IMG/VR virus record: IMGVR_UViG_3300018412_000011
Reading direction: 5' to 3' (one strand)
DNA from: an uncultured virus (IMG/VR IMGVR_UViG_3300018412_000011)
Lineage: Duplodnaviria; Heunggongvirae; Uroviricota; Caudoviricetes
Length of the DNA: 64,000 bases
Shown here: piece by piece, positions 2,440-43,626 of the stretch
Numbering within the stretch: the stretch's first letter is position 1
Layout of the letters: each line of letters begins with the position of its first letter
Translations under genes and position numbers: made by a program
The notes under the pieces: generated by a model
The model's input: only the letters and a program-made list of their open reading frames with translations
What the model was told of the DNA's origin: nothing
Database searches by the model: none

Positions 2440-2496
2440 ATTTGATCCTTTTTTATGTTATGTTAAAATACTACGCTTTTATGTTATGTTAAACGA

Positions 2497-2964
2497 CTAA
2501 CCAAAAATATCGTCGTCATCATCAAAAAACTCATTGTCATCTGTTTCTGAAGATTCTGAAGGTTCTGAAGGTTCAAATTCAGCCATTTCTTCTTCATTTT
2601 GCTTGCAAGTTTCCAAATCATCTTTTTGTTTTAACGCGATCTTTTCTTTCTTATCCAAAGCTGGGTTACTATCTTTTGCAATATTGGGGATATTTTTGTT
2701 ATTAAGCCATTCCGGAACTGTTTGGATAATAGCATCTTCAACTTCAACAACTTCCTTTCTTCCTTTGCCAACTCCATCAACAATAATTTGCATACTGTTT
2801 TGAAGAGACTCTACAAGATCTGTGGTTAAAGCTTTTTCTGCCTTTATTCTTTCTTCTTTTGAATTATATTCAATTTCTTCTTCGGCGTATTTAACCAACT
2901 CTATGTGTTGGAAATTTTTAAGATTAACCCTTAAATTAATTGATTCTGCTATTTTTCTTTTCAT
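2497..2964 (-). CDS. Hypothetical protein (ends in TAG)
   Basis: 155-aa ORF, AGGAG RBS, acidic tail. Confidence 0.65.
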   Translation of the reverse strand: MKRKIAESINLRVNLKNFQHIELVKYAEEEIEYNSKEERIKAEKALTTDLVESLQNSMQIIVDGVGKGRKEVVEVEDAIIQTVPEWLNNKNIPNIAKDSNPALDKKEKIALKQKDDLETCKQNEEEMAEFEPSEPSESSETDDNEFFDDDDDIFG

Positions 2965-2973
2965 TTTTTTCTC

Positions 2974-3684
2974 CTATAATTTTACATTTGAATTAGATAT
3001 TCTTGAAAACAAATTGCCTCCCCCAAAGCTTTCTACTTCCTCAACTTGTTTCTTTTTTTGTTTTCTTTCTTTATCTACAACTTTTTTAATGTCTTGATAT
3101 TTGTTTTTCAATTCATCTCTTTTCATGTCCCAAGCCGCATCCATGCATCCACAATCAACTAACGCCTCAAACACTCTTGATGTGACTCTTCTATTATCTA
3201 CTTTATGAATAAACTCTTTTAAAGAATTAAATGGTTGATTCTCAATAATACTTTCAACCGCTTTTTCTCCCACTCCCTTTAGAATAGTTAATGGACATCT
3301 GATAAATGTATAAGATTCGCCTTTTTTATTTATTCCTTCTTCTAGTAAAAAGTCTGAACCGCTTTTATTAATATTTGCTTTTTTAATAACAATTCCCATA
3401 TTTTGTGCCTCTTTTATATAAGAGTCTAATTTCACATTCTTGTCATTATTCGCAATTTCAGCAGTTAATAAATTACACATAAATTCTAATGGGTAGTGAA
3501 CTTTCAACCAAGCTGTTTGGTAAGATATCAATCCATACGAAACTGAATGGCTATTCATCGTTGGAATTTGGATATTGTTTTGGGGATCATATATAAAATA
3601 ATTATGTTGATCCGACTTCATAGTCAAACTATAACTTTTTTGTTTTCCTAATGACTTAATTGATTTGATTTTGCACTTTTTCAT
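2974..3684 (-). CDS. dnaE: DNA polymerase III alpha, piece 3: C-intein 2 plus C-terminal extein (HhH region)
   Basis: N-terminal MKKCKIKSIKSLGKQKSYSLTM...HNYF...PTMN is a C-intein. It is followed by SHSVSYGLISYQTAWLKVHYPLEF and IKGVGEKA-type DnaE motifs. Confidence 0.92.
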   Translation of the reverse strand: MKKCKIKSIKSLGKQKSYSLTMKSDQHNYFIYDPQNNIQIPTMNSHSVSYGLISYQTAWLKVHYPLEFMCNLLTAEIANNDKNVKLDSYIKEAQNMGIVIKKANINKSGSDFLLEEGINKKGESYTFIRCPLTILKGVGEKAVESIIENQPFNSLKEFIHKVDNRRVTSRVFEALVDCGCMDAAWDMKRDELKNKYQDIKKVVDKERKQKKKQVEEVESFGGGNLFSRISNSNVKL

Positions 3685-4931: not shown

Positions 4932-6608
4932 TTAAGGAGCTTTTTCATATAATATTTCTAAATCTTTTTCAATTATTTCTTCTAAAGTATGTGGCTTAAA
5001 GTCGGTACAAACAAACTTATGGTCAATTGTGCATTTAAAAAGAGCTCCATTATCTAATTCAACTTCAAAAAGTTCTTTTTCTCCTACCTCAAATACATCA
5101 ACAACTTCGTCTTCTACAACCACCCCATCTTTTATGGAATTTAAATAGATTTTTGGAAAATTACATTTTTCCCCTTGCTCAAAATTATTCCAACAATGAG
5201 CTTTAAAAAAATCTTTTTCTAGATTTTCTAAAGAATAGACTTTCCCATCAACTGACTTAACGCAAGTATCGCCCGACAAACATTTATTGAAACCATAACC
5301 TCCAAAGAATTTGATTTGTTCAAAAATTTCTTTAGCAATTTGAGGATTAACGTTATTGTGCTTCTTACAACCTTCAATAAAATCTTTTTCTTGCGCGTCT
5401 AAAAGATCTTGTTTCTTTTTACCAACTGCTTTCCTTAAAGTATCCGATTGACCCTTAGTAAATCCCGCAAGTTCTTGAGCAACTTTCATGAAATCTTCTT
5501 GATATACAATTAAAGAGTATGTTTTTTTCAACAACTCTCCCATTTTTGGATGTAAAGGCTTAATTGGTTTACGTCCATGTTTATAGTCAGCATAAAGTTC
5601 TGGAACCCCCGCGCCTAAAGGTCCTGGTCTAAACAAAGCGGTTGCTGCAACCATATCTCCAAAAGAATCGACCCTAATATCTCTTAACAATCGAGAAATA
5701 CCATATGATTCGAATTGAAACACCCCTTTGTTTTCTGCTCCTTTTATTTTACCATTAAGTAAATCAAAAACTAATTGATCTATTGGTTCTAAAGTGTTAA
5801 TATCTATCTCTTTTCCATGGCGACTTTTGATCATTTCAACTGTTCTTGAAATAACAGAAAGAGTTTTTAAAGCTAAACAATCAAACTTCAACAAACCTAA
5901 TTCTTCTACTTCTTCTTTGTCGAATTGAGTGCAAATCACATCTTTGCGACATCTTAAAGGAACATGTTTTACAATTGGATCTTTGCAAGCCACAATACCA
6001 GCTGCATGAGAACCCGCAGAAGATATAGTCCCTTCAATATGTTGAGCTGCTCGATATAAAGCAGGATATCTTTGCATAGATTGTTTAAATTCAAAAGAAT
6101 TTTCATATGCTTTTTCAATAGTCATGTCAGGATCTTCTGGAATTTGCTTTGATATTTCATCTGCAATGTTCAAAGAATTTTTGGTAATAAATTTTTTACC
6201 AGTTCTAACTCCTTTTTGGTAATTTTCCCAATCATTACCTAAATCCAAAGCTTTAGCGGCATAACGAATAACCGCTTTAGCTTTAAATGAATTATATGTG
6301 CCAATTTGGGCACAATGATCAGCCCCATATTTTCTCCTTATGTAATCAAATATTTCATCTCTACGGAAATAATCAAAATCAATATCAACGTCAGGTGGAG
6401 AAATACGTTCTGGATTCAAAAACCTCTCAAATAAAAGATCATATTTAATTGGATCGACATTTGTAATCCCCAAACAATACAAGGCAAGAGAACCCGCGCC
6501 TGAATTATGAACTGATAAACCTTCTATATTATAAGCATGTATTTTATCTACATGCAAATCATAAACTTTTCCTTTATATTCTCTTTTTGATATTTTTTTT
6601 ATTTTCAT
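4932..6608 (-). CDS. dnaE: DNA polymerase III alpha, piece 2: C-intein 1, catalytic core, N-intein 2
   Basis: Starts MKIKKISKREYKGKVYDLHV...VHN|SGAGS; catalytic PDVDIDF, HAAG and GLLKFD; ends GFNK|CLSGDT...CTIDHKF (N-intein). Confidence 0.95.
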   Translation of the reverse strand: MKIKKISKREYKGKVYDLHVDKIHAYNIEGLSVHNSGAGSLALYCLGITNVDPIKYDLLFERFLNPERISPPDVDIDFDYFRRDEIFDYIRRKYGADHCAQIGTYNSFKAKAVIRYAAKALDLGNDWENYQKGVRTGKKFITKNSLNIADEISKQIPEDPDMTIEKAYENSFEFKQSMQRYPALYRAAQHIEGTISSAGSHAAGIVACKDPIVKHVPLRCRKDVICTQFDKEEVEELGLLKFDCLALKTLSVISRTVEMIKSRHGKEIDINTLEPIDQLVFDLLNGKIKGAENKGVFQFESYGISRLLRDIRVDSFGDMVAATALFRPGPLGAGVPELYADYKHGRKPIKPLHPKMGELLKKTYSLIVYQEDFMKVAQELAGFTKGQSDTLRKAVGKKKQDLLDAQEKDFIEGCKKHNNVNPQIAKEIFEQIKFFGGYGFNKCLSGDTCVKSVDGKVYSLENLEKDFFKAHCWNNFEQGEKCNFPKIYLNSIKDGVVVEDEVVDVFEVGEKELFEVELDNGALFKCTIDHKFVCTDFKPHTLEEIIEKDLEILYEKAP

Positions 6609-7566
6609 TTTTTTGTTTTTTTGTTTTCAATCTAATGAAGAAATTTTGAACTGCTTTGTTGTCGATAAATCTTATGTCTTTAAGGTAAGGGGTTACTTGC
6701 CTCCGAACATAAACATCTGATCGGACTAGAATACCTCTATTTTTCAACTCTTTTAAGGAGAAAACGATGTATTTTTCTCCGAATATTTTTTTTGCTGCAT
6801 TAAGTTTTTCATTATAATTATGAAAAACTTTATTTCCCTTTATTTCCACAAGATACGAATTATTTTTAGTTTTAATTTCAAAATCTGGATAATAATTTCT
6901 AGTTTTATTTGCTTTGTCTTTGTATGGTATTTTCTTATCGCTTCGCTTTATTTCAAGAATTTTTGAATTTTTAAAACAATATATTATATATAATAATTCC
7001 CAACTACTATGAAAATGAATTCCTCTTATGCTACCCGAAACAAACTGTTTCGAATTTCTTTTTTCAAAATATAAAGGATCTTCTTTAACCAATCGTTCGT
7101 GGGCTTTTCGTTGTTTTTTAATTACATCTTCTCTATTCTGAGCAATAAGTTGAGCCTTTGAATTATTCTCTTTCCACTCGTCAGAACTAGTTGCATATTT
7201 TAAGGCGCATTTTGAACATATTGGTTTCACACCACATATACTTCTTCTTCTCATTTTATTAAATTCCATCAAATCTTCTTCATCACATTCTTGACATGTG
7301 AATTTTATCAACTTTTTTGTCTTGAGAATATCTAAATAAGGTAAAATATCTTTATATTCCCAATATTCATTATTCCATTTTCCTTGTAAAGATTCTGGAA
7401 CGTCTTTTTTCAAACCATACCTCCCCCCCTTACTATGATTTTTTTTATAGCATTCTTTACATATCGGAACTCCACTTTTTACCTTCCTTCTTTTAAGCCC
7501 TCCTGGTTGTAATTTGAATTCTTTGCCACACTCGATACACTTATATTTTTTTGTTTTTCCTCTCAT
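6574..7566 (-). CDS. Free-standing Zn-ribbon plus TnsA-like PD-(D/E)XK endonuclease between split-intein halves
   Basis: Several CxxC pairs; HSSWEL...YYPDF...LVEIKG nuclease motif. Confidence 0.78.
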   Translation of the reverse strand: MRGKTKKYKCIECGKEFKLQPGGLKRRKVKSGVPICKECYKKNHSKGGRYGLKKDVPESLQGKWNNEYWEYKDILPYLDILKTKKLIKFTCQECDEEDLMEFNKMRRRSICGVKPICSKCALKYATSSDEWKENNSKAQLIAQNREDVIKKQRKAHERLVKEDPLYFEKRNSKQFVSGSIRGIHFHSSWELLYIIYCFKNSKILEIKRSDKKIPYKDKANKTRNYYPDFEIKTKNNSYLVEIKGNKVFHNYNEKLNAAKKIFGEKYIVFSLKELKNRGILVRSDVYVRRQVTPYLKDIRFIDNKAVQNFFIRLKTKKQKNENKKNIKKRI

Positions 7567-7633
7567 GTTTTAGTCCTTTGTCTCGTTTATTCAACGACAG
7601 AACTAAAACTTCCTCTACTAGATCCTAAAAAAA

Positions 7634-9064
7634 TTAAATTTCTAATTCTTCTATCTCATAAATATCATCATTTTCGGAAAGATCTTGTGCTTCCACCCAA
7701 ACTAATTCTCCATCTCGAACTACATGAATTTTGTGATTGTTTGTGCAAGAAATCACCTTGCCATCTTCAAGTTCTATGTCAAAAATTTCTTCTTCAACTT
7801 CATATTCAAACTTATTTAGAACTTCATGATATTGCCCGTCATAAGACAAAACAAATTCCCCCTTTCTAATTAATTGTATTTTTTTCAATTCATTTTTTGT
7901 CTGCACCAAGCTTTCTGGAACAAAACAACCACGACCAGGCCCGACCGCTATGTTTTGTTCGTGAGCATAACGAATCATATCCCAAAGAATTAAAAAGTAC
8001 TTAATGTATCCACATTTCTCAATTGCTTTTAATTCAAATCTAATTCTTTCTTTGTATTCTTGCTTGCCTTTGAAACCCAATTTAACAAAACCATCTTTAA
8101 TTAAAGCAATAAGATAGTCCATTTCTGTCTCAAATCCTTCTGGTAATTCAAAAGACGGGAGTAAATCGGCAGATTCTTCCATCAATGGTTTTGACGAAAT
8201 CTTATCAACAATTTCTTTTGTATTTTCCAAAAGCTCAGGAACTTTCTTATATTTATTCGCAATTTCATCTTTGCTTTTGATATAAAACTCATCACTATCT
8301 AAAGTAAATCGTTTTGGATCTTTAATATGATTGTGGGTTTGCATTGCTAAAAGAATATCATGGTACTCTGCATCTTCTTTTTTTGCATAATGACAATCAT
8401 TAGTCGCAATTGCTTTAATATTATGTTTTTTAGAGAGTTTAAAAAGAACTTTTGCCACATCTTCTTCTCTTTTCTTTTGCTCTTCATTATTAAAATATTC
8501 ATGAGCCATAATTTCAATATAATAATCATCTTTAAAAAGATCTTTATATTTTAAAATAACTTGTTCCGCAACATCAACATGACCTTGATAAATGTTCATT
8601 GAAACTTCGCTTGAAATGCAACCAGAAGTACAAATCAATCCTTCATGATATTTTTGCAACAAACCAAAATCAATCCTAGGCTTTTTATATTTGCCTTCAA
8701 TCTCAGCAATAGAAGAAAGAGTAAACAAATTTTCTAACCCCTTTCTGTTTTTAGCAATGATAGTGATATGGTAAATAGGCATATTTTTATCCCTAGATGT
8801 ATGATCTTCAGAGATGTAAAATTCAGAACCCATAATGGGCTTAATGCCTTTTTTAAAACATTCTTTCTGGAAACGGAACAAGCCAGCACAAGTTCCATGG
8901 TCTGTTAATGCTAGAGCATCATATCCATTGTCAACAGCGCCTTGAACCATTTGTTCGATTGAACCAAGCCCATCTAATAAACTGTAGTGAGAGTGGTTAT
9001 GCAAATGGGCAAAATAAATTCCCTTTGATTCTTGTGATTTTTTTTCTTCGCAATTATTACACAT
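7634..9064 (-). CDS. dnaE: DNA polymerase III alpha, piece 1: PHP domain plus N-intein 1
   Basis: HLHNHSHYSLLDG, TDHG and TNDCHY PHP motifs; ends GPGRG|CFVPES...CTNNHKI (N-intein). Confidence 0.95.
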   Translation of the reverse strand: MCNNCEEKKSQESKGIYFAHLHNHSHYSLLDGLGSIEQMVQGAVDNGYDALALTDHGTCAGLFRFQKECFKKGIKPIMGSEFYISEDHTSRDKNMPIYHITIIAKNRKGLENLFTLSSIAEIEGKYKKPRIDFGLLQKYHEGLICTSGCISSEVSMNIYQGHVDVAEQVILKYKDLFKDDYYIEIMAHEYFNNEEQKKREEDVAKVLFKLSKKHNIKAIATNDCHYAKKEDAEYHDILLAMQTHNHIKDPKRFTLDSDEFYIKSKDEIANKYKKVPELLENTKEIVDKISSKPLMEESADLLPSFELPEGFETEMDYLIALIKDGFVKLGFKGKQEYKERIRFELKAIEKCGYIKYFLILWDMIRYAHEQNIAVGPGRGCFVPESLVQTKNELKKIQLIRKGEFVLSYDGQYHEVLNKFEYEVEEEIFDIELEDGKVISCTNNHKIHVVRDGELVWVEAQDLSENDDIYEIEELEI

Positions 9065-10448: not shown

Positions 10449-10795
10449 GGGGATGATTGGAATCGATTCATATCGAAATAGCACTTTTGCATGGAGAATT
10501 CCATAACTTCTATAAAATATGGATAAAACTAAACGACAAAAGTTTAGAAATAGCTGCTTAAACAAAGCAGTTCGGGAAATAAGTAGATTATCTTAGTATC
10601 TTAAAATACCGTAAAATAACAAGATGGATTAAGAAAGTCCTTCTTTCTTTGACTTCTAGCAAAGACTAGATGCATTCTGATAGAAGAATCAGACAGAGTT
10701 TGTTTATGTCTCTGCTAACAAATAAACTAACCTTGTGAATGATAAAGTGTGGTTTCATAGAGAAGAAGGGAGTTCGAATCTCCCCATCTCCACCA
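10449..10795 (+). ncRNA. ssrA: tmRNA
   Basis: Acceptor stem GGGGATG/CATCTCC-ACCA with G3:U70, T-arm GGGAG-TTCGAAT-CTCCC, tag frame ...LNDKSLEIAA-stop at 10529-10561. Confidence 0.95.
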
Positions 10796-13944: not shown

Positions 13945-14020
13945 TGGTGCTTGTGGTGGGATTCGAACCCACACTCTCAGAAGGTTAGAATTTCTGGCTC
14001 TACCATTGAGCTATACAAGC
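13945..14020 (-). tRNA. tRNA with CUA anticodon (amber suppressor candidate)
   Basis: 76-nt cloverleaf GCTTGTATAGCTCAATGGTAGAGC-CAGAAA-TTCTAAC-CTTCTG...GTGGGTTCGAATCCCAC...ACCA. The stem pairs only with CTA at 34-36; there are A:C mismatches at 7:66 and 31:39. Confidence 0.75.
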
Positions 14021-14025
14021 ATTTG

Positions 14026-14544
14026 TTATAAATATTTTTTGTCTACAAAATCAGTTAACCATACTCCATTTTCTGACAAATAAAAATCAATATTATCAAG
14101 CATCATAGGCGTTGTATTAATTTCTACAATCCAAGGCTTTTCATTCCCCCTGCAATGTCGCTTGCCAACTTTAATCGCAGTTTCTTTATCGGCGCTTAAA
14201 TGTACATGTTGTCGATTCATCTTTAAAAGACCTTTTTTAAGAATTTGATCTTTAATTCTAGGGGTTGTTCCATGATAAAGAGTCTTTGGGGGAACTGTTT
14301 TTTTAAGTTGAACATTTACTTGAATTGAATGTCCTTGATTCGCCCTTATTTTTGTTTTCTCCTCGTTGAAAGAAAAACGTTTTTTGTTGTTGGTTGCGAC
14401 AATATTTTCCAATTGGACAAAGCTCACTCCAACTTTTTTCAAAACTTCATCGACAAAACACCATCCATTTTTATCCATATTTAAATCTTCTGGATTATGT
14501 CTTAAGAGATATGAGAGCTTTTTGCTTACTTTTATATTGTTCAT
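14026..14544 (-). CDS. kptA: RNA 2'-phosphotransferase (Tpt1/KptA)
   Basis: LSYLLRH, KKRF, IRANQGHS, LYHGT and RQHVHLS motifs. Confidence 0.95.
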   Translation of the reverse strand: MNNIKVSKKLSYLLRHNPEDLNMDKNGWCFVDEVLKKVGVSFVQLENIVATNNKKRFSFNEEKTKIRANQGHSIQVNVQLKKTVPPKTLYHGTTPRIKDQILKKGLLKMNRQHVHLSADKETAIKVGKRHCRGNEKPWIVEINTTPMMLDNIDFYLSENGVWLTDFVDKKYL

Positions 14545-19313: not shown

Positions 19314-20312
19314 TTATTTAAACTTATCAATGATGTTTACGAAATCTTCACGAATATTGACTTGAACAGCTTTAGAAAGTTCTTTTTTAACTTTTTTTGC
19401 TTCTTTTTCATCAATATCTTGTTCAATTTCTTCTTCGAACTCTCTGCGATATTCGTCAATAATATCTACAATGTATGTTCCCATTAGGGGGCCAAACTTC
19501 TTTTCATCAATATGGTCGAACTTAGACACAACAGCATTACGCCTATTCTCATTAACACAACCTAAAAGCCAATTCAATTTTTCTTTGGCTTTTTCAGAAA
19601 GCTTAATATCCTCTTTTAACTTTGCACTTTTGTTTTTCCCATTTTCTTTGAATTTTGCATTTTTATTTTTAAAAATAATTCTAGACCCAGTATTGAAAGT
19701 GCAATATTCAACTGGTTCAATAACAGTGCCTTCGGCAATATTTCCGTCAATATCAGGCAAGCCATAATACTTAGGAATGGTAGTTAGAAAATCATTAGGA
19801 TATTCAAGACATTCTTTCAAAGTACCTCTTTTTAGAATTTTTGCATAATGAAAATCAGTTTTTGAAAAATAAAATCCCCTATCATCAACATTTAAATGTT
19901 CACCATTTTTTACAATGTCAAATCCATAAAAATCATTATGAGGACAATATGAAACCTCTTTTTGAACTTTTTTGGTTCCTGGAGGAGAGACTATATCAGG
20001 ATAACCTCCTCCAAACCACTCCCCATAAACGGAAACAAATCCATCATTTCCCAAAAGGTCATAGAGTTTTAACATTCTTTCTTTAAGGGAATCAACATGA
20101 GAATTAATCCCATAGAAATTGCTTTCAATCCCAATAAACCCACTTCGGGATGCAAGGCGAAATTCGTTACCATCATAGTGCATGGATAGATTGCTGCCAT
20201 GAACTTTTTCGGTACAAACGAACTCTTGATTGGCTTTGCCTTCTTCGACAACTTTATCAAGATATTTTTGACGTTGTACATTTTCAATACTAGAGAATTT
20301 AGTGAAATTCAT
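19314..20312 (-). CDS. RNA ligase, Rnl2 family
   Basis: EKVHGSN (motif I), GEWFG, FDI, EGTV and FKNK motifs. Confidence 0.92.
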   Translation of the reverse strand: MNFTKFSSIENVQRQKYLDKVVEEGKANQEFVCTEKVHGSNLSMHYDGNEFRLASRSGFIGIESNFYGINSHVDSLKERMLKLYDLLGNDGFVSVYGEWFGGGYPDIVSPPGTKKVQKEVSYCPHNDFYGFDIVKNGEHLNVDDRGFYFSKTDFHYAKILKRGTLKECLEYPNDFLTTIPKYYGLPDIDGNIAEGTVIEPVEYCTFNTGSRIIFKNKNAKFKENGKNKSAKLKEDIKLSEKAKEKLNWLLGCVNENRRNAVVSKFDHIDEKKFGPLMGTYIVDIIDEYRREFEEEIEQDIDEKEAKKVKKELSKAVQVNIREDFVNIIDKFK

Positions 20313-30400: not shown

Positions 30401-30406
30401 ATAAAA

Positions 30407-30509
30407 TGGAACATGAGGTGGGCTATTTACCCTACTTCTCCGCCTTAACCTGGGAACCAAACGTGTTTCAACGCTCATTTCGAGCTTCAAAAATAAAAGC
30501 TTCTCATGC
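30407..30509 (-). ncRNA. tRNA-like RNA with enlarged centre, anticodon undetermined
   Basis: Acceptor GCATGAG/CTCATGT-TCCA, D-like GCTT/AAGC hairpin, atypical T-arm. Confidence 0.45.
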
Positions 30510-30642
30510 ATAAAATGTGCAAGCGGTAACTGTAAACTATCTCAACTCTTAAACCGACAGACTGTTATCTTTGTTCCAGACAAAGTTGCAGTAATTCAGA
30601 AAGCATCAATGATTTAATACTCAATCCCTTACTTGCGGAAAT

Positions 30643-30746
30643 TGGCGGGCCTGCTCTCACCCGAGTCAAACCACTTAAGTCTCTGTAATGGTGGAAGAGG
30701 GTCACATCCCCTATACACAAAACTTCAATGACAGGCAGGTTTCGCC
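30643..30746 (-). ncRNA. Structured small RNA candidate in the tRNA array
   Basis: Ends pair (GGCG..CCTGC / GCAGG..CGCC) and the sequence finishes in CCA. Confidence 0.4.
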
Positions 30747-30751
30747 TAAAT

Positions 30752-30859
30752 TGGTGAATGGGGCAAGATTCGAACTTGCGGCGACTTCTTAAACTCGTTT
30801 TTCGGACCTTTCCATCCATCATAGTTTAAGTACGGCTCTACCAACTGAGCTACACATTC
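30752..30859 (-). tRNA. tRNA-like gene with a greatly extended anticodon arm (identity undetermined)
   Basis: Normal acceptor, D (GCTCAGTTGGTAGAGC) and T arms with ACCA; about 32 extra nt around a CTTAAAC/GTTTAAG stem. Confidence 0.65.
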
Positions 30860-30866
30860 AAAAAAT

Positions 30867-30964
30867 TGGTGGATCGACTGGGGTTCGAACCCAGGACTCC
30901 AAGATTAATCATTTGCGCTATCTTACGCTGAAGTCTCGTACTCTACCAACTGAGTTACCGATCC
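30867..30964 (-). tRNA. tRNA-Lys(TTT)-like gene with a 22-nt insertion in the anticodon loop
   Basis: Removing 30909-30930 gives a 76-nt cloverleaf with CGAGA-CTTTTAA-TCTTG. Confidence 0.75.
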
Positions 30965-30967
30965 ATT

Positions 30968-31390
30968 TTAAATTTCGTAATCTTTTGCCCATCTAACCCC
31001 TATAGCTTGATTATTTTTAGAAGCCTCGACTCTTAATGTGGCTTGCTTAAAACCAACTTTGTCAACAGGAACAATATAGCATTTATTTAAGTCGGGACTA
31101 TATATTCCAAAAAGGTCAATTTGTCCTCTATAACTTTGTTTTTCATGCTTTGTAGAAGATCCTTCCGGAACATGATAAGTGGAACTACAACAAGGAAAAA
31201 CAAGAACTCCTTTTATAAGATTAGCTGTTTTTATTTGAACTCTTTCAAGACCATTGCCTCTGTCAATAACACAATCATATCTTTCACAATCTCCTAATAC
31301 ATCAGCTACAACCCATTCATTTTCTAGGCATTTCGCCATAAAATAAATTTCGCTAATTGTTCCCTTTCTTTTGGGTGCTTTCTTTTTCAT
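30968..31390 (-). CDS. PD-(D/E)XK endonuclease of the group I intron-associated (I-Ssp6803I-like) type
   Basis: GTISE, RYDCVID...RVQIKT and YRGQIDLFGIY motifs; lies between two tRNA-Lys genes. Confidence 0.8.
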   Translation of the reverse strand: MKKKAPKRKGTISEIYFMAKCLENEWVVADVLGDCERYDCVIDRGNGLERVQIKTANLIKGVLVFPCCSSTYHVPEGSSTKHEKQSYRGQIDLFGIYSPDLNKCYIVPVDKVGFKQATLRVEASKNNQAIGVRWAKDYEI

Positions 31391-31557: not shown

Positions 31558-31615
31558 AATTTTAAAAAATTTCAAATTTCAAAGAACAATCAATTTTTGA
31601 GAAAAATTGTAAAGC

Positions 31616-31646
31616 AAAAAACCCGACCTTTCCAAGTCGGGTTTTG
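31616..31646 (-). terminator. Attenuator terminator of the Lys/Val/Thr tRNA operon
   Basis: AAAACCCGACTT-GGAA-AGGTCGGGTTTTTT; competing segment AGTTGGGTTTTG at 31666-31677. Confidence 0.85.
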
Positions 31647-34748: not shown

Positions 34749-35520
34749 AAAAAAATGAAGCAATATTTTTCAGTATTGCTTCAGGTATAGGATGAGATTA
34801 CTCCGTTAACAAGGGTCCATTTGCAAACTTATTTTTTATTTGCGTATCCACTGTTTTACCAGTTGACCCTCACATTCGCCTTTTTAAATTGGAGGCTGTT
34901 CCAATCATTATAGATTCTTCTGCAAAACTTTCGACTTCCGAAACTAGCTAGGTTCCAAAAATCTAGTTATTCTACAAACTCTTAAGCCTTGCGAGCTTAA
35001 AAGCCCCTGGAGATCCAGGCGTTGAATGCTTACCTCTACGATGGGACGGGATTATTGCTTTTGAAGTTTATTTGGATTTAAACCAAGTCTTCATGACTTA
35101 TATTACTCAATTGTGAAATCCGCACCCGCCCATCTGTTTCGCTTCTTTCGAAACAAAATGCAGAACGAATCTCTATCCTCGTCTTGCGTGACGTTTGGAC
35201 GCTTTTCTAGGATTCCCCCTGACCTTTTAACGTCAGTAATCTTCCTATCAAGTTGCATGCAGCCATTAAAACGCAAATAATTTTGACCGTATGCTTACCC
35301 TTTGACCAACTCTTCTTTCTCTATCTAGATTACCATTCGGCATTTCCAGAGGAACTTTCGTTCTTTCGATACTCGAAAAGAATCTCCCCTTGTGGAAAGA
35401 ATTCTAGTCTCGGCTTGCATCAGTGACCTTTTCCAAGGCGATCTACGTCTTGAGTGCGTAGACCTTTTTTATATGTTGCCATATATCTATCTTCCCCGAA
35501 GGAGGATGTGATACCACCCT
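34749..35520 (-). ncRNA. Large (~770 nt) structured ncRNA, GOLLD/ROOL-like candidate
   Basis: ORF-free, GC-richer, many GNRA-capped hairpins; own promoter (35583-35610), boxB/boxA-like leader (35535-35565) and terminator (34749-34782). Confidence 0.7.
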
Positions 35521-37846: not shown

Positions 37847-38347
37847 TCAATGATTTTCTCGTTCAATTTTTAATGTTTCTTTTATTTTGGGAATATCGAC
37901 CTCTTGTAATCCATGTTCTTCATTGATTAAGATATGATGCTTTTTCAATTTCTCATCTGAAGCATCTGGATCATCATCCAAAATCACAAAATTGGTTACT
38001 TCAGGATGTTCATCGAACCATGAATGAATTTCATAATATCTTGGAATATACTCTGAAAAATGAAAATATCTCCCTTTATATCCTTTAACCCGAATACAAG
38101 GAGTTTTGTCCCAAATATCAAAAACAGTTTTAACTGCCTTATATCCATCTTCTAAGTTTCTCCAAGTTGATGACAAAACAATTTTTGCATCAAATTCTTT
38201 TTGAATGTCTTTGACTATTTTTATACTTCCAGGATCAAAACCACTAATGGATCTATACACGGAATGATCTTTGGTTTTATCAAACAAATTGTCTAAATAA
38301 ATCCAATTATTAATTACTCCATCAATATCTAGAAATATAACTTTCAT
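37847..38347 (-). CDS. HAD-family phosphatase (RNA-repair-associated type)
   Basis: MKVIFLDIDGV, IVLSSTWR and FVILDDD motifs. Confidence 0.85.
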   Translation of the reverse strand: MKVIFLDIDGVINNWIYLDNLFDKTKDHSVYRSISGFDPGSIKIVKDIQKEFDAKIVLSSTWRNLEDGYKAVKTVFDIWDKTPCIRVKGYKGRYFHFSEYIPRYYEIHSWFDEHPEVTNFVILDDDPDASDEKLKKHHILINEEHGLQEVDIPKIKETLKIERENH

Positions 38348-39473
38348 ATTTTCGTCACTTAATCGCCCCAATAAGAAACCTTGTACCACCCATGACCCTG
38401 ATGTTCAATTAACCCATCATCTGCAAGTTCACTTATCCCTTGGTGAATTTGGGCTCTTGTCCATGTATCATTTGATTCAAGCAAATCATCACAAATATTT
38501 GACCGTTGGTTCCCTTTGTCAATATGATAGCGTATTCGCTTTTTTAGTTCACTTTGATCATACATATAAAAAGTCCAATTGCATATAAAATAATTTCTAT
38601 CATTATTTTCCTCTACAAAAGATTGCATTATTTAAAACCTTTTGTCAACTAAAATCTTAAATTATTTAAAGCACTCTAAGGTTTTAATCTCATTTCTTAC
38701 GATTGCACAAACAATTTCATCAAATGTTTCTTTAGAATATTTCCCATCTGGTAAATCACTTCCTCTTGTCCAAGTTTCTCCAACCAAAGGAGTTCTGCAA
38801 CTACTGATGCAACCTAAATATCCTTTATCTTTTCCATTCGGCAAAGTTGCAGAAATTCCATATTCGTATTCATTAGAATAGAATTTACACTTCACCCTCA
38901 ACCCTGATTCTCTTCCACATTCAAGAAAAAAACAAGATTTTTCAAAATTGCCATAAGGAATGATAGAAGACAACCATTCAATAAATTCTCCAAAACCTAG
39001 TTTGACCAAATCTTCTTTAGAAATTAGTTTGCCTTCATAACGTTTTTCAATCATTTCAATGGTGTGGCTTTTTCTTGTTTTTTCGTCACAAAGTTGAGGT
39101 ACTTTTGTTTCTAATGAACTTTCATTTTTCATTTTAATATCCTTGGTTTTCTTAATTGATTATACAAGATTTTACATTTATCACATTTAATTTTCATTTT
39201 ATTCTTTGAACGTCAAAAGTATAATCGGGACATTTATTCGCAACCGTATCTCCCCACTTTTCTTTTTCCTCATCGCCTGTTTGAGGAGAAAAAATATGTT
39301 TCTTTTTATGTAAAGAACAAATTCTTCCCATTCCATGTCCCACTGTCAAAAACTTACAATCCCAACATGATTTGTTTTCTTCTGTCCCAAATTTTTTAGA
39401 TGTGAAGGGCTTGTGCCATCCATATCCGTCTTCATCTACCCATATTGTCTTTTGCATAATGTTCTCCTTAAAT

Positions 39474-39553
39474 TGGAGTGCTAGACAGGAATCGAACCTG
39501 CTTTTACGTCTAGATTGGAAATCTAGGGACTCACCTTTCGCCTCAACTAGCAC
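39474..39553 (-). tRNA. tRNA-Gly(TCC)
   Basis: Acceptor GTGCTAG/CTAGCAC, U73, CTAGA-TTTCCAA-TCTAG; atypical D-arm. Confidence 0.8.
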
Positions 39554-39574
39554 ATGTTTTATTATACAGTAAAA

Positions 39575-39666
39575 TGGTGGGGCCAGACGGGATCGAACCG
39601 ACGACCTTCTGAATGCATCATTGTCTTTCGACGAATCAGACGCTCTCCCAGCTGAGCTAATCCCCC
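39575..39666 (-). tRNA. tRNA-Ala-like gene with a 16-nt anticodon-loop insertion; acceptor stem partly mismatched
   Basis: GGGGGATTAGCTCAGCTGGGAGAGCG start; removing 39618-39633 gives TCTGA-TTTGCAT-TCAGA; lacks G3:U70. Confidence 0.65.
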
Positions 39667-39700
39667 ATTAGGATTGGTATTTACATTATACAATAAAAAT

Positions 39701-39779
39701 TGGTGGAAGTGACGGGTCTCGAACCCGCAAAACTCCGCATTGCAAGTGCGGTGCTTTACCGTACATAAGCTTCACCCCC
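39701..39779 (-). tRNA. tRNA-Ala(TGC)
   Basis: G3:U70, CCGCA-CTTGCAA-TGCGG, ACCA. Confidence 0.88.
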
Positions 39780-39836
39780 ATTATAATATTTCAAATTTTT
39801 TAAAGAACAATTAATTTTTGAGAAAAATCATAAAAC

Positions 39837-39867
39837 AAAAAACCCAATCTTTAGCGAGATTGGGTTT
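39837..39867 (-). terminator. Attenuator terminator of the Ala/Gly tRNA operon
   Basis: AAACCCAATCT-CGCTAA-AGATTGGGTTTTTT; competing GATTGGGTTT at 39886-39895 overlaps the leader stop codon. Confidence 0.88.
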
Positions 39868-39893
39868 CGGAAAAATCGACAATACAAACCCAA

Positions 39894-39971
39894 TCAGAAG
39901 GAGATACCTCCTGCCGCTGCGGCCCCGCCGTTTCCAATGTTTGTATAAATTTTTTTCAAGTTTTTAATCAT
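39894..39971 (-). CDS. Leader peptide MIKNLKKIYTNIGNGGAAAAGGISF (Gly/Ala sensor)
   Basis: GGA AAC GGC GGG GCC GCA GCG GCA GGA GGT; ATG 6 nt after TTGCAT-N16-TATATT (39978-40005). Confidence 0.88.
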   Translation of the reverse strand: MIKNLKKIYTNIGNGGAAAAGGISF

Positions 39972-40014
39972 GGAATCAATATAACGCATCTTTAACATTA
40001 TGCAAGAAAAATTT

Positions 40015-40551
40015 TCATCTTTTTTCGTAAAGCTTATCAAAATATTTAATCTCTTTTTCATAACACTTTTTGAAAAAAATATTATATAAGTATAGAACCT
40101 CACAAAAATCATCCGTAAGAGTGGTTGATTCAAGGTTTTTCTCTCGAAAGTCTTTAATGAGCTCTTTCATTTGTTGTATGTGAGAATACTTTTCAATATC
40201 AATGTAAGATTCTTCATCTAAATGTTTTAAGGATAAATAAAGAGTCTCGACAGAATCCCATAGAGGCCACATGAAATTACGATGCAAAACAGTAGAACTC
40301 CCATATCTTCCAAGATACATAGGGGAAGAAATCAAATCTATAAGTCTCTTAACCGCTTTTTTATTTGACATATTTTTCCTAGATAAAATGAAAAATGCTT
40401 TTTTCTCTTTATATCGTCCAATGGCTTTAGACAATTCTAAAACCGCTTTAATTTCTTGAAGTTCTTTAAACTGTTCCAACACAAAACCTACATCAAGTTT
40501 TAATGTGCTGAGTTGGTCTTTTGATAACTTAATATATCCCATGTTTTCCAT
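40015..40551 (-). CDS. Hypothetical protein, paralog family MENxGYxK
   Basis: Similar to 40567-41139 and 43627-43845. Confidence 0.65.
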   Translation of the reverse strand: MENMGYIKLSKDQLSTLKLDVGFVLEQFKELQEIKAVLELSKAIGRYKEKKAFFILSRKNMSNKKAVKRLIDLISSPMYLGRYGSSTVLHRNFMWPLWDSVETLYLSLKHLDEESYIDIEKYSHIQQMKELIKDFREKNLESTTLTDDFCEVLYLYNIFFKKCYEKEIKYFDKLYEKR

Positions 40552-40566
40552 AATTTTTCCTTGTTT

Positions 40567-41103
40567 TTAAAGATTTATTTGAATCATTTCTACATTAAAA
40601 TTTGGCTTATAATGTTCGTTATACAAATTCTCCCAATAACGAAGTTTAACTTTGTTATCTGATATTGTCCAAGCTGCTTCATATTTTTCCAAAGAAGTTT
40701 TGGCAATATCCATTGAGATTTTATAAGTTTCAATGTCTAGGTACGATTCCCTTGTCAAGTTACGAATTAAGTCTAGGAACTCTATTGCTTTATCTAAAAC
40801 TTTATCTCCATACCCTTGAGTTAAAATCCTAAAATCTCCGTATTTAAAATCAATAAACAATCCATATCTTGATTCCACAGATTCTACTAACTCTTTAATA
40901 ATTTCAGAATTTCCCATTTCATCCACTTTTTTTTGTTTAAACTTGAATCTTTTTTGAGTTCTATAATTTAAGACAGAACGTTCTAATTCTTCAACTGCTT
41001 TGATTTGCTGAATTGTTTTAAATTTCTGAATTCCTTTTTCTACTTTTTCAACAATGTCATTGACATCATCGGGATCAATTTTCACATAGCCTAAATTTTC
41101 CAT
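40567..41103 (-). CDS. Hypothetical protein, paralog family MENxGYxK
   Basis: MENLGYVKI...QQIKAVEELE...ESYLDIE. Confidence 0.65.
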   Translation of the reverse strand: MENLGYVKIDPDDVNDIVEKVEKGIQKFKTIQQIKAVEELERSVLNYRTQKRFKFKQKKVDEMGNSEIIKELVESVESRYGLFIDFKYGDFRILTQGYGDKVLDKAIEFLDLIRNLTRESYLDIETYKISMDIAKTSLEKYEAAWTISDNKVKLRYWENLYNEHYKPNFNVEMIQINL

Positions 41104-43626
41104 AATGTTATCCTTAAGTTCTATTTTTGTCGGAATCAATCAAAGGGGGTGATCCCTGTTATTGTGGGAGGATGTTTTCTATATCCTCCCGTTATCTGAG
41201 GCACAGTACTTGAGCATTTTTCAGTTATTTCTGAGTTTAATTGATCATATTTTTCATGAGTAAGGGGGCCATTCCCACACATCTTCTGTTAAATTGATTA
41301 TGAATTCCTGATATGGTCTCAAGATGTACTAGGAGATTAACTTTCATTCGTTCTCCTTTTCTTCTGAATTGAATACCCATGAACATGCCCCATTCTCTAA
41401 TTCATCAAAAATTTCATCTCGTATAGATTCGATTTTATCTGTTGTTAAGATTTCTCCACAATGTCCAACTAGGGAGTTGAAAATAGCGAATTTTATTGTT
41501 TCTTTTGCGTCTTCTGTCATTTTTTGTCCTTTGTTTTCGTCATAGTTTTCGTAGTGAGGCTTCCATCCTATAATCCCATTTTCAATAATAAAATATTCTT
41601 CATGCTTCTCTCCGAAAGTTATAATCCCATCTCCCCAAAGATATTGAATTAAATCAGGGAGATTTTCTGGCATAGGATCTTTTTGCTTATGTCTTTGAAA
41701 TCCCCCTTTGTTATAGAATGAAGCCAAATCATTTTCAAGATTAAATTCATTCCAATGCTTAAGCTCTCCTGAACCATCATCAATGACCCAATCATTCATC
41801 TTCTCACTAAAAATCCACTTCCACGCTTCTGGCAAAAGTTGGTTTTCTTCTATTCGAGTCTCTTCTTGGTTTTGTAAATGGGGATTAAGAATTTCTGGCA
41901 TATGTCCAATCCACAAAGCCAATGACTCTAATTTTTTATAATCCTCTTTGGAAATGGTTTCATAAGTGTTTCCCAATATAATATTCGCCATTTCTCTAAT
42001 GTTTTCAAAATCTTCTTTGTCCATCATGATTCTCCATAGTCTTTTCCTTTATTTTCAACCATTGGATCAACGGAACTCGCTTCGCTTTGTCCGTTATATT
42101 GTGAGTTGTCCTTGTACGGATTAAAGTCCGAAGCCTTGGTCAAGACCTCCTCATACTCACCGATTTGCCAAACAGTACCCTTCATCCACCCACCTTCCAT
42201 CTTTGACTTCTCAATGATTTCGGCCACACCTTTCTTAAAGGCATCTATGTCTGTTGATTGATACTGGGTTCTAAAGATTCCATACTCGCCTTCGCTTTCA
42301 TCAAACCACTGTAATTTGTATATAGTCATAATTTACCCCCCGTCTGATCACAACAAGACTCTTGGTCAAACCTCGCAAGACCGATCCTGCCAGCTTCGGC
42401 GTTGTCATAAGGCTTCCAATCTAACCAAACGCCACAACACATCGGACGATCAACCCCTTTTTCAATATAAAGCATATCACAGTCCATCAACCTTAATTTT
42501 CGTCCTGAATCTTCAACGCCATCTCTCCATGCTCTTAGGTAAAGGAGGTTTAAGGTGTGATCCCACTCAGTAATGGAGTTGTTGACATTTTCGACAAGTT
42601 TTATGTGTTTATTGTGCAAAGTATCAAAGCTCATTTCGGAAGATCCATATCTAAGGGTGATTTACAATCAGGGCAAAGAGGCAGGTCCTCGCTGTACTCC
42701 TTGTGAGTGTGGCAGAACTTAGTTTCAACAATCAGCTGGACCGAGTTCGCTTCGCTCATTCGGTCAGTGGTGGCGTTGATGCAATCACCAGAACAGCACC
42801 CTTCAACAAAGCATTTAGAAAAATGCTTACAATTATCTGCCAGATTATTTTCAACCATCCTCTCGGCGGAATCGCCTTTCACTGTCTCGTGGTTCATACG
42901 TCCTCCATTTCATATTCTAGAGTTAAATTGCCTGTTTCTTTAAATTTTTCAACCGCTTTAGAAACATCCCCATGTCTAGGACAAGTTTTCCCATCTTCCA
43001 AGTAAAACCAACATCTTCCAACTAGAGTTCCATCACCTGTTTGTTCATTGATTGGGCAATTGCAAACAGATATTCTGCTTGTAGTTTCGTGAACATTATT
43101 AAGTGCATCTGAAACTGTTTTTAAGGCGTCACTAGCAAATCGCACTTTATTCCCATCGAAATCTTTCAAGGTTTTGGTTTTTTTGAAAATATTTTTCATT
43201 AATCAATGCCTCCTTTTGACGACAAGAACTTTCTTGCCTTTAGTCATTAATGGCAATAGCGTTTCCTTTTATGTCGTCATCAAAACATTCCAGATATGAT
43301 ATCTCTCCAATCTCGCTATCAAACAACACTTCCTCAACTTTTGTTATTTTTCTGTGAGTATAGTGTTTGTCAATCCTTGTAACAATTTCTAATTCGGGAT
43401 CTAAATCTTGCAATAGTTTCATTAATTCTTTGTTTTTCATTATTAACTCCATTTTGTCCATAGTTTAAAAAATTTGCTTTTTGAAAATGTTTTTCATTTT
43501 AATTATTAGGAGGGCATTTGAATTTACGACCCGCATAAAATGCTTCTTGAGCAATTTCATTCAACAGTTCATTGAAATTAGTTTCCATTAGGGCGTTTCT
43601 TCCTTTGGGATTCTCAACTTCATTAA

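Follow-up and report, generated by a model that had tools for sequence, protein, structure and literature searches.

We analyzed a 64,000-nucleotide stretch of DNA from an uncultured tailed virus (IMG/VR record IMGVR_UViG_3300018412_000011; "the window") and propose that ribosome-mediated leader-peptide attenuators control entry of transcription into its transfer RNA (tRNA) genes. Judging from the sequence, it is probable that these elements let transcription run into the phage tRNA genes when the codons of those tRNAs are decoded slowly. One such element is a short Gly/Ala-rich open reading frame (ORF) followed by a terminator, which stands before genes for tRNA-Ala, an Ala-like tRNA, and tRNA-Gly. 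Its anatomy is repeated at other tRNA loci, the codons of the leaders match the tRNAs that follow, and the terminator arms have alternative pairing partners within the leaders. The first-pass annotation of this DNA had read the Gly/Ala element as an attenuator, and that core reading is supported by two paralogues in the window and by 12 codon-matched leaders in two related phages.

The Gly/Ala leader and its paralogues in the window

The window is AT-rich (GC content of 0.28-0.39), and its minus strand carries almost all of the genes. The Gly/Ala locus (39474-40005) is also read on the minus strand, with the following parts.

40005-39978, minus: promoter-like site of putative function, found by a regular-expression scan (-35-like hexamer 40005-40000, 16-base spacer, -10-like hexamer 39983-39978)
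39971-39894, minus: Gly/Ala leader ORF, 25 codons plus stop codon (39896-39894)
39935-39906, minus: putative regulatory run, codons 13-22, in which five Gly codons use all four synonyms and four Ala codons use three, plus one Asn codon
39895-39886, minus: segment 1, the candidate 5' arm of the antiterminator, 10 bases from the second base of the stop codon
39868-39839, minus: intrinsic terminator hairpin (segment 2 39868-39857, loop of 6, segment 3 39850-39839), with a U-rich tract after it
39827-39802, minus: 26-base spacer motif, which also occurs in the Lys/Val/Thr locus (31606-31581), after the terminator in both cases
39779-39701, minus: tRNA-Ala (anticodon UGC), first gene after the terminator, 51.4 bits
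39666-39575, minus: Ala-like tRNA, 37.8 bits, missed by ARAGORN at default settings
39553-39474, minus: tRNA-Gly (anticodon UCC), 31.5 bits

Three details that the first-pass annotation had picked out are present as described: the ten-codon run with its four Gly and three Ala synonyms, the set of tRNAs downstream, and an exact copy of the terminator 3' arm overlapping the stop codon. This copy, segment 1, reproduces all 10 bases of the 3' arm stretch 39849-39840, and the 5' arm at 39867-39858 is the reverse complement of the same word. In the whole 64 kb the word occurs only three times, namely as segment 1, in the 3' arm, and as its complement in the 5' arm. The terminator has 12 pairs and a predicted energy of -14.8 kcal/mol, and it was recovered by a consensus terminator scan as well. 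The 26-base spacer motif has 2 matches in the window, compared with 0 expected from 100 shuffles.

Position 40005, at one end of the locus, is the first base of the -35-like hexamer and not a start codon. Two in-frame ATGs (39998 and 39989) fall within the promoter-like site, and the first ATG past the -10-like hexamer is at 39971, which is the likely start codon. Because this ATG has no Shine-Dalgarno sequence and lies 6 bases past the -10-like hexamer, the message would be leaderless. An automated start rule takes an upstream -10-like word and returns a 55-codon frame, in which Gly and Ala make up 9 of 54 residues (P = 0.04); we prefer the promoter-proximal start.

With that start, 9 of the 24 residues that follow Met are Gly or Ala, where the background fraction is 0.087 (P = 1e-4; all binomial P values were computed against the phage's own amino acid usage). 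None of the 455 small ATG ORFs of the window reaches the fraction of the leader. The eight-residue Gly/Ala stretch within the leader is the only run of at least five Gly/Ala residues in all six frames of the window. The variety of synonymous codons had been taken in the first-pass annotation to mean that the leader senses any isoacceptor. This does not follow from the variety, which lies within codon-usage expectation: by phage codon usage, five draws yield all four Gly synonyms in 16% of trials, and four draws yield at least three Ala synonyms in 46%. Across the phages considered here, the leaders sample 26 of 29 isoacceptors, with 24.4 expected (P = 0.28), and the match at the codon level is not significant.

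The same order of parts, consisting of a promoter-like site, an ATG, a short frame, an arm copy, and a terminator, is repeated at tRNA-Lys and tRNA-Ile. The two loci are laid out as follows.

37850-37592, minus: Ile locus (promoter-like site 37850-37823, leader 37816-37748, segment 1 37771-37762, terminator 37723-37696)
37683-37592, minus: tRNA-Ile (anticodon UAU) of the Ile locus
31771-30080, minus: Lys/Val/Thr locus (promoter-like site 31771-31744, leader 31734-31678, segment 1 31678-31666, terminator 31645-31618), with tRNA-Lys (31557-31471), an endonuclease gene, two insert-bearing tRNAs, and tRNAs Val, Val, and Thr following in order to 30080

Both promoter-like sites have the same hexamer pair and spacing as the Gly/Ala site. 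The ATG follows the -10-like hexamer by 6 bases in the Ile leader and by 9 bases in the Lys/Val/Thr leader, again with no Shine-Dalgarno sequence in either. Lys, Val, or Thr fill 13 of the 17 residues of the Lys/Val/Thr leader (P = 8e-7), and the single ORF among the 455 that reaches this fraction is the leader itself. In the Ile leader, Ile makes up 6 of 21 residues (P = 0.004), a fraction reached by 9 of the 455.

Two observations concern these loci more generally. The tRNA-Lys (87 bases) and the tRNA-Ile (92 bases) have long variable arms, which are unusual for these identities; the tRNA-Lys of a relative has 75 bases. In addition, a 3355-base contig (run X1, record 5) joins near-copies of the spacer region 31584-31625 and the promoter region 39960-40011, separated by 112 other letters. 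The join hints that the phage has a fourth leader element in another part of its genome.

Leaders and tRNA sets in two related phages

Nucleotide-level searches returned nothing: blastn of 38000-42000 against a phage collection gave no match, and exact DNA words of the leader and spacer occurred 0 times in viral contigs, in which the neighboring proteins also had no matches. Two relatives were examined. The first, G002, is a 161-kb viral record that is syntenic with the window, has a PolIII-alpha 52% identical to that of the window, and contains 23 tRNA matches. Five of its tRNA blocks are headed by a promoter-like site, a ribosome-binding site, a frame of 25-30 codons, and a terminator with an upstream arm copy. 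The second, G008, is a 476-kb record in which the neighboring 304-residue protein is 47% identical. It has 60 tRNA matches, and seven of its blocks have codon-matched leaders, each before exactly its own tRNA set. The 12 leaders are listed here.

G002, Asn/Gln leader: before tRNAs Asn, Gln, and Asn
G002, His/Ile/Glu/Pro leader: before tRNAs His, Ile, Glu, and Pro (Pro found only at relaxed settings)
G002, Phe leader: before tRNA-Phe
G002, Gly/Ala leader: before tRNAs Ala and Gly
G002, Lys/Thr/Val leader: before tRNAs Lys, Val, Thr, and Thr
G008, first five leader sets: Val/Ala/Ile; Gln/Asn; Thr/Lys; Phe; Glu/Pro
G008, remaining leader sets: Arg/Trp/Ile/Val/Asp/Met/His; Cys/Tyr/Leu/Ser

The Gly/Ala and Lys/Val/Thr leaders occur in the same order in a syntenic variable region of the window and G002, which allows positional counterparts to be compared. 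The first-pass annotation had asked for conservation of the Gly/Ala run with synonymous changes in homologous loci, and the G002 counterpart does keep a Gly/Ala-rich frame. At the nucleotide level the two are weakly similar, with an identity of 0.58 versus 0.51 in shuffles (0.66 versus 0.55 for the Lys/Val/Thr pair), and the terminator arms differ entirely between counterparts. Leaders in G002 and G008 have a Shine-Dalgarno-like sequence ahead of the ATG. Together the seven G008 leaders account for every amino acid except Gly (19 of the 20), and the Gly tRNAs of this phage have no leader; two of the seven carry two tandem terminators, and eight other tRNA positions lack a leader. Of two short contigs returned by a metagenome scan, one (L082 6300-6467) also ends within a leader-like frame, in which Lys, Thr, Ala, Val, and Gly are abundant. 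This frame is preceded by a promoter-like site and a ribosome-binding site and occupies the syntenic position past the 304-residue protein. This contig stops before any terminator or tRNA and is unusable here.

We computed matching statistics from the coordinates of all 15 leaders (3 in the window, 5 in G002, and 7 in G008). Every one of the 15 is enriched for its own amino acid set, with P values from 0.04 to 8e-7, where the 0.04 extreme is the Gly/Ala leader with its over-long automatic start. When leaders and tRNA sets were permuted, the observed pairing had the highest summed enrichment in each phage, i.e. 1 of 6 permutations in the window, 1 of 120 in G002, and 1 of 5040 in G008. In four more distant PolIII relatives (32-34% identity), a leader or terminator was found at 0 of 7 tRNA clusters. 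Thus, such leaders are not a default product of tRNA flanks.

Alternative pairings, proposed mechanism, and rival explanations

For each leader we took the best pairing of the 90 bases upstream with the terminator 5' arm as the antiterminator statistic. At the Gly/Ala locus, the duplex of segment 1 with the 5' arm has a predicted energy of -14.9 kcal/mol, which was reached by 0 of 500 shuffles. The corresponding counts are 0 of 500 for the Lys/Val/Thr leader and 16 of 500 for the Ile leader. Overall, no more than 1 of 500 shuffles reached the pairing in 11 of the 15 leaders, and 6-46 of 500 did so in the other four. At 12 ordinary terminators used as a control, the pairing was reached by 60-469 of 500.

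In full-length minimum-energy folds, the terminator forms in all three window leaders and segment 1 pairs with the coding region. We then folded transcripts lacking the terminator 3' arm with a ribosome mask extending from 15 bases before the A-site codon to 12 bases beyond it. In the Gly/Ala leader, the antiterminator forms when the A site is on codons 1-22, which include all Gly and Ala codons; it no longer forms when the A site reaches codons 23-26 (the stop codon and the three sense codons before it). The Lys/Val/Thr leader retains the full antiterminator on codons 1-15 and a partial one on codon 16 (8 of 10 bases), and loses it on codons 17-19. In the Ile leader, segment 1 remains paired upstream when no ribosome is present, and a ribosome on codons 2-12, which hold five of the six Ile codons, frees it to form the antiterminator. 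The G002 leaders behave alike. In these models, the mask reproduces the logic of a classical trp-type attenuator.

Based on these pairings, we propose the following mechanism. Transcription would begin at the promoter-like site, and the 25-codon leader would be translated as it emerges. When Gly and Ala codons are decoded quickly, the ribosome would reach the last codons and the stop and cover segment 1, so that segments 2 and 3 form the terminator and the transcript ends before the tRNA genes. When decodable Gly or Ala tRNA is short, the ribosome would linger on the Gly/Ala run and leave segment 1 free to pair with newly made segment 2; no terminator would form, and transcription would read through to the tRNA-Ala, Ala-like tRNA, and tRNA-Gly genes. 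The new tRNAs would relieve the stall and thereby close a negative feedback loop, which would make the circuit self-limiting. With other codons, such a device would likewise gate the tRNA genes at the Ile and Lys/Val/Thr loci and, in the two relatives, most tRNA blocks. Leaders in the window would be translated from leaderless or nearly leaderless messages, and those of the relatives from ordinary ribosome-binding sites. Host codon-usage mismatch, decay of host tRNAs after shut-off, and cleavage by tRNA-targeting defense nucleases are candidate causes of slow decoding, and any of them could be the physiological trigger.

Several points weigh against this mechanism. None of the three window leaders has a Shine-Dalgarno sequence, and their translation rests on a putative transcription start at the ATG or close to it. 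Because the stability of the terminator exceeds that of the antiterminator, only a kinetic switch would work, with the two pairings presumably competing as the transcript emerges. Truncated folds form the antiterminator without a ribosome in two of the three window leaders, which makes the untranslated state ambiguous, and the footprint model is a crude one that gives a thermodynamic sketch only. The Ile leader is the weakest of the window on both its Ile fraction and its pairing statistic (9 of 455 ORFs and 16 of 500 shuffles), and under strict wobble just 2 of the 6 Ile codons in it are read by the UAU anticodon. In each of the three phages, some tRNA genes have no leader. Finally, the three phages belong to one clade, and orthologous leaders are not independent samples.

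We weighed three other explanations. The missing Shine-Dalgarno sequences would fit a switch that works without translation, in which the terminator or antiterminator is set by tRNA binding, as in a T-box, or by a protein, and the codon run is a binding or structural element. In the full-length fold, the region of segment 1 does pair with the GC-rich Gly/Ala run, which thus has a structural role as well. Such a switch is unlikely, given that no T-box or other riboswitch family matched at the gathering score in the window or at E values up to 1 at the locus. Each of the 15 leaders runs as an open frame from an ATG to a stop, the leaders of the relatives possess ribosome-binding sites, and the in-frame amino acid composition is conserved with synonymous variation and differing nucleotides. 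One leader also matches seven tRNA identities, which would be hard to achieve by direct RNA-tRNA pairing. A different possibility is that each promoter-to-terminator unit makes a small RNA or micropeptide unrelated to tRNA control. Every unit is indeed a complete cassette, and several leaders end in hydrophobic residues, but this explanation leaves unexplained both the composition that tracks the tRNA set behind each unit and the copy of a terminator arm at the end of the ORF. Since peptide sequences are not conserved between positional counterparts either, we consider it very improbable.

Least probable of all, with only a slim chance in our view, is that the terminators are ordinary gene ends, the ORFs are due to chance, and the tRNAs have their own promoters. 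The -10-like words between the tRNA genes of the Ala/Gly block speak for such promoters, and a consensus promoter scan found 8 sites versus 7.5 in shuffles. On the other hand, a promoter-like site is aimed directly at each terminator from 60-140 bases away, and the antiterminator pairing is absent at the 12 control terminators. Leader composition matches the downstream tRNAs in 15 of 15 cases, and no permutation pairs leaders with tRNA sets better than the observed arrangement. Other G002 terminators mostly follow long ORFs: of eight terminator-like sites examined, five come after ORFs of 182-402 residues; of the remaining three, one follows a tRNA-Leu gene, one has no long ORF before it, and one is a weak hairpin. 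None of the three alternatives explains why in-frame composition tracks the tRNA set at 15 loci while the nucleotides differ. We retain leader-peptide attenuation as the probable explanation.

Genomic setting, known systems, and implications

The window looks like part of a huge phage. Public runs containing its DNA are labeled freshwater metagenomes, and there was no RNA run among those listed. In a cluster look-up, three assembly sources contained the identical phage sequence without variants, and no sequence variant of the leaders was found in contigs of two DNA runs. Its PolIII-alpha is less than 40% identical to that of the nearest cultured phage, and the gene is split by an intein and accompanied by homing endonucleases. 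A sigma-70-type factor and an Hsp20 are also encoded, and the window has 11 tRNA matches plus one transfer-messenger RNA (tmRNA). Other features relevant here are the following.

4932-9064, minus: split PolIII-alpha gene, interrupted where intein splicing domains match, with endonuclease genes in the vicinity
10449-10795, plus (opposite to nearly all genes): tmRNA gene, 68 bits, preceded by a promoter-like site from 10399
13945-14020, minus: amber-suppressor-type tRNA (anticodon CUA), directly after the Tpt1 gene, with no attenuator-type leader
14026-14544: Tpt1/KptA RNA 2'-phosphotransferase
19314-20312: Rnl2-type RNA ligase
30968-31390: PD-(D/E)XK endonuclease gene, between tRNAs of the Lys/Val/Thr locus
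37847-38389: HAD domain of RNA-repair proteins

G008 likewise encodes an amber-suppressor-type tRNA. When TAG is read as Gln, a few ORFs of the window are lengthened or merged (e.g. 2479-3684), and the leaders are unaffected. Just upstream of the Gly/Ala leader are the genes of two adjacent proteins of 178 and 190 residues (40015-40551 and 40567-41139, minus) with similar N-termini. Neither belongs to a Pfam or PHROG family, and the 178-residue protein has no homologue except itself among 5.8 billion proteins.

Three tRNA matches in the window have extra bases in the anticodon loop: 39575-39666, 30867-30964, and 30752-30859 (minus). The first is the Ala-like tRNA, which, aligned to the tRNA-Ala of a relative, has a 16-base insert just 5' of the anticodon. 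One possibility suggested by these inserts, together with the RNA ligase, Tpt1, HAD repair domain, and endonuclease genes, is a cut-and-rejoin pathway that treats the inserts as mini-introns. Between the insert-bearing tRNAs and tRNA-Val, about 350 bases (30401-30751, minus) contain no notable ORF and have no Rfam match at E values up to 0.1; they may form a novel structured RNA. A match to GOLLD, a large ornate RNA, was found between tRNA loci (34789-35173, minus; 137.3 bits, E = 5e-38), just below the gathering score of 150. It lies within an ORF-poor unit of about 830 bases that extends from a promoter-like site of the leader type (35610-35583) to a terminator at 34783.

The Gly/Ala locus has the structural hallmarks of a leader-peptide attenuator, yet its sequence is a member of no curated leader family: the Rfam leader families (Trp, His, Thr, Leu, etc.) gave no match at the gathering score in the window or at E values up to 1 in 39440-40020, the same scopes in which the T-box model had none. 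In enterobacteria, leader-peptide attenuators control the trp, his, phe, and leu operons, and the thr and ilv leaders are multivalent. These share with the phage locus a promoter-proximal codon-rich ORF, a terminator, and an overlapping antiterminator blocked by the finishing ribosome, and several are multivalent, as are several of the phage leaders. They differ in that they have no similarity to the phage locus in sequence or by Rfam model, and in that the phage output is tRNA genes instead of biosynthetic enzymes, which would make the feedback direct because the sensed molecule is also the product. Each phage genome also contains 3 to 7 or more copies of the device, which differ in codon set and cover up to seven amino acids per leader; the copies in the window appear leaderless.

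Other known systems share individual features. The pheST operon for phenylalanyl-tRNA synthetase is attenuated by the leader pheM and thus places a gene of the translation apparatus under the control of stalling at cognate codons, as proposed here, but it concerns a bacterial synthetase and one amino acid, not tRNA genes. T-box riboswitches likewise choose between terminator and antiterminator according to the state of a specific tRNA. Unlike the phage leaders, they are untranslated, recognize uncharged tRNA directly by means of a specifier codon and a conserved T-box sequence, and control synthetase, biosynthesis, and transport genes. In actinobacteria, Cys-responsive small ORFs and the leaderless trp, ilv, and leu leaders of corynebacteria act as attenuators. 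They set a precedent for regulatory leader peptides on leaderless messages, though in another host group and with amino acid genes as outputs.

Phage tRNA arrays, as in T4, T5, and huge phages, are thought to offset codon-usage mismatch or loss of host tRNAs. Our literature searches, which left subscription journals largely outside, returned no report of a decoding-speed sensor before phage tRNA arrays or of attenuation-type control of tRNA genes. A passage of one paper concerns supercoiling of a tRNA operon promoter and not attenuation (PMC3082878). The mechanism we propose is classical attenuation, and within the literature so covered we found no published description of its use on phage tRNA genes.

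We tentatively advance a broader reading, which is possible but less well founded than attenuation itself: the leaders may form a clade-wide, modular, genome-wide sensor of the decodable tRNA pool, and the arrays may serve inducible counter-defense and homeostasis instead of being a constitutive codon-usage supplement. Each module would then activate replacement tRNAs only when the host tRNAs for its codons are short, as a result of host shut-off or of tRNA-targeting defense nucleases. The RNA ligase, the Tpt1-type 2'-phosphotransferase, and the HAD repair-domain genes of the window would belong to the same tRNA-rescue program, a theme with which their presence fits circumstantially.

If the attenuation reading is correct, the finding would bear on the long-standing question of why phages carry tRNAs, as the sequence of the sensor itself would state what the phage measures, namely slow decoding of those codons. 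It would extend leader-peptide attenuation from amino acid supply to the tRNA pool, with a product that feeds back on its own sensor and with single leaders able to report on up to seven amino acids. Such compact, codon-specific sensor modules could serve synthetic biology, and the leaders could guide the annotation of tRNA operons in uncultured huge phages.

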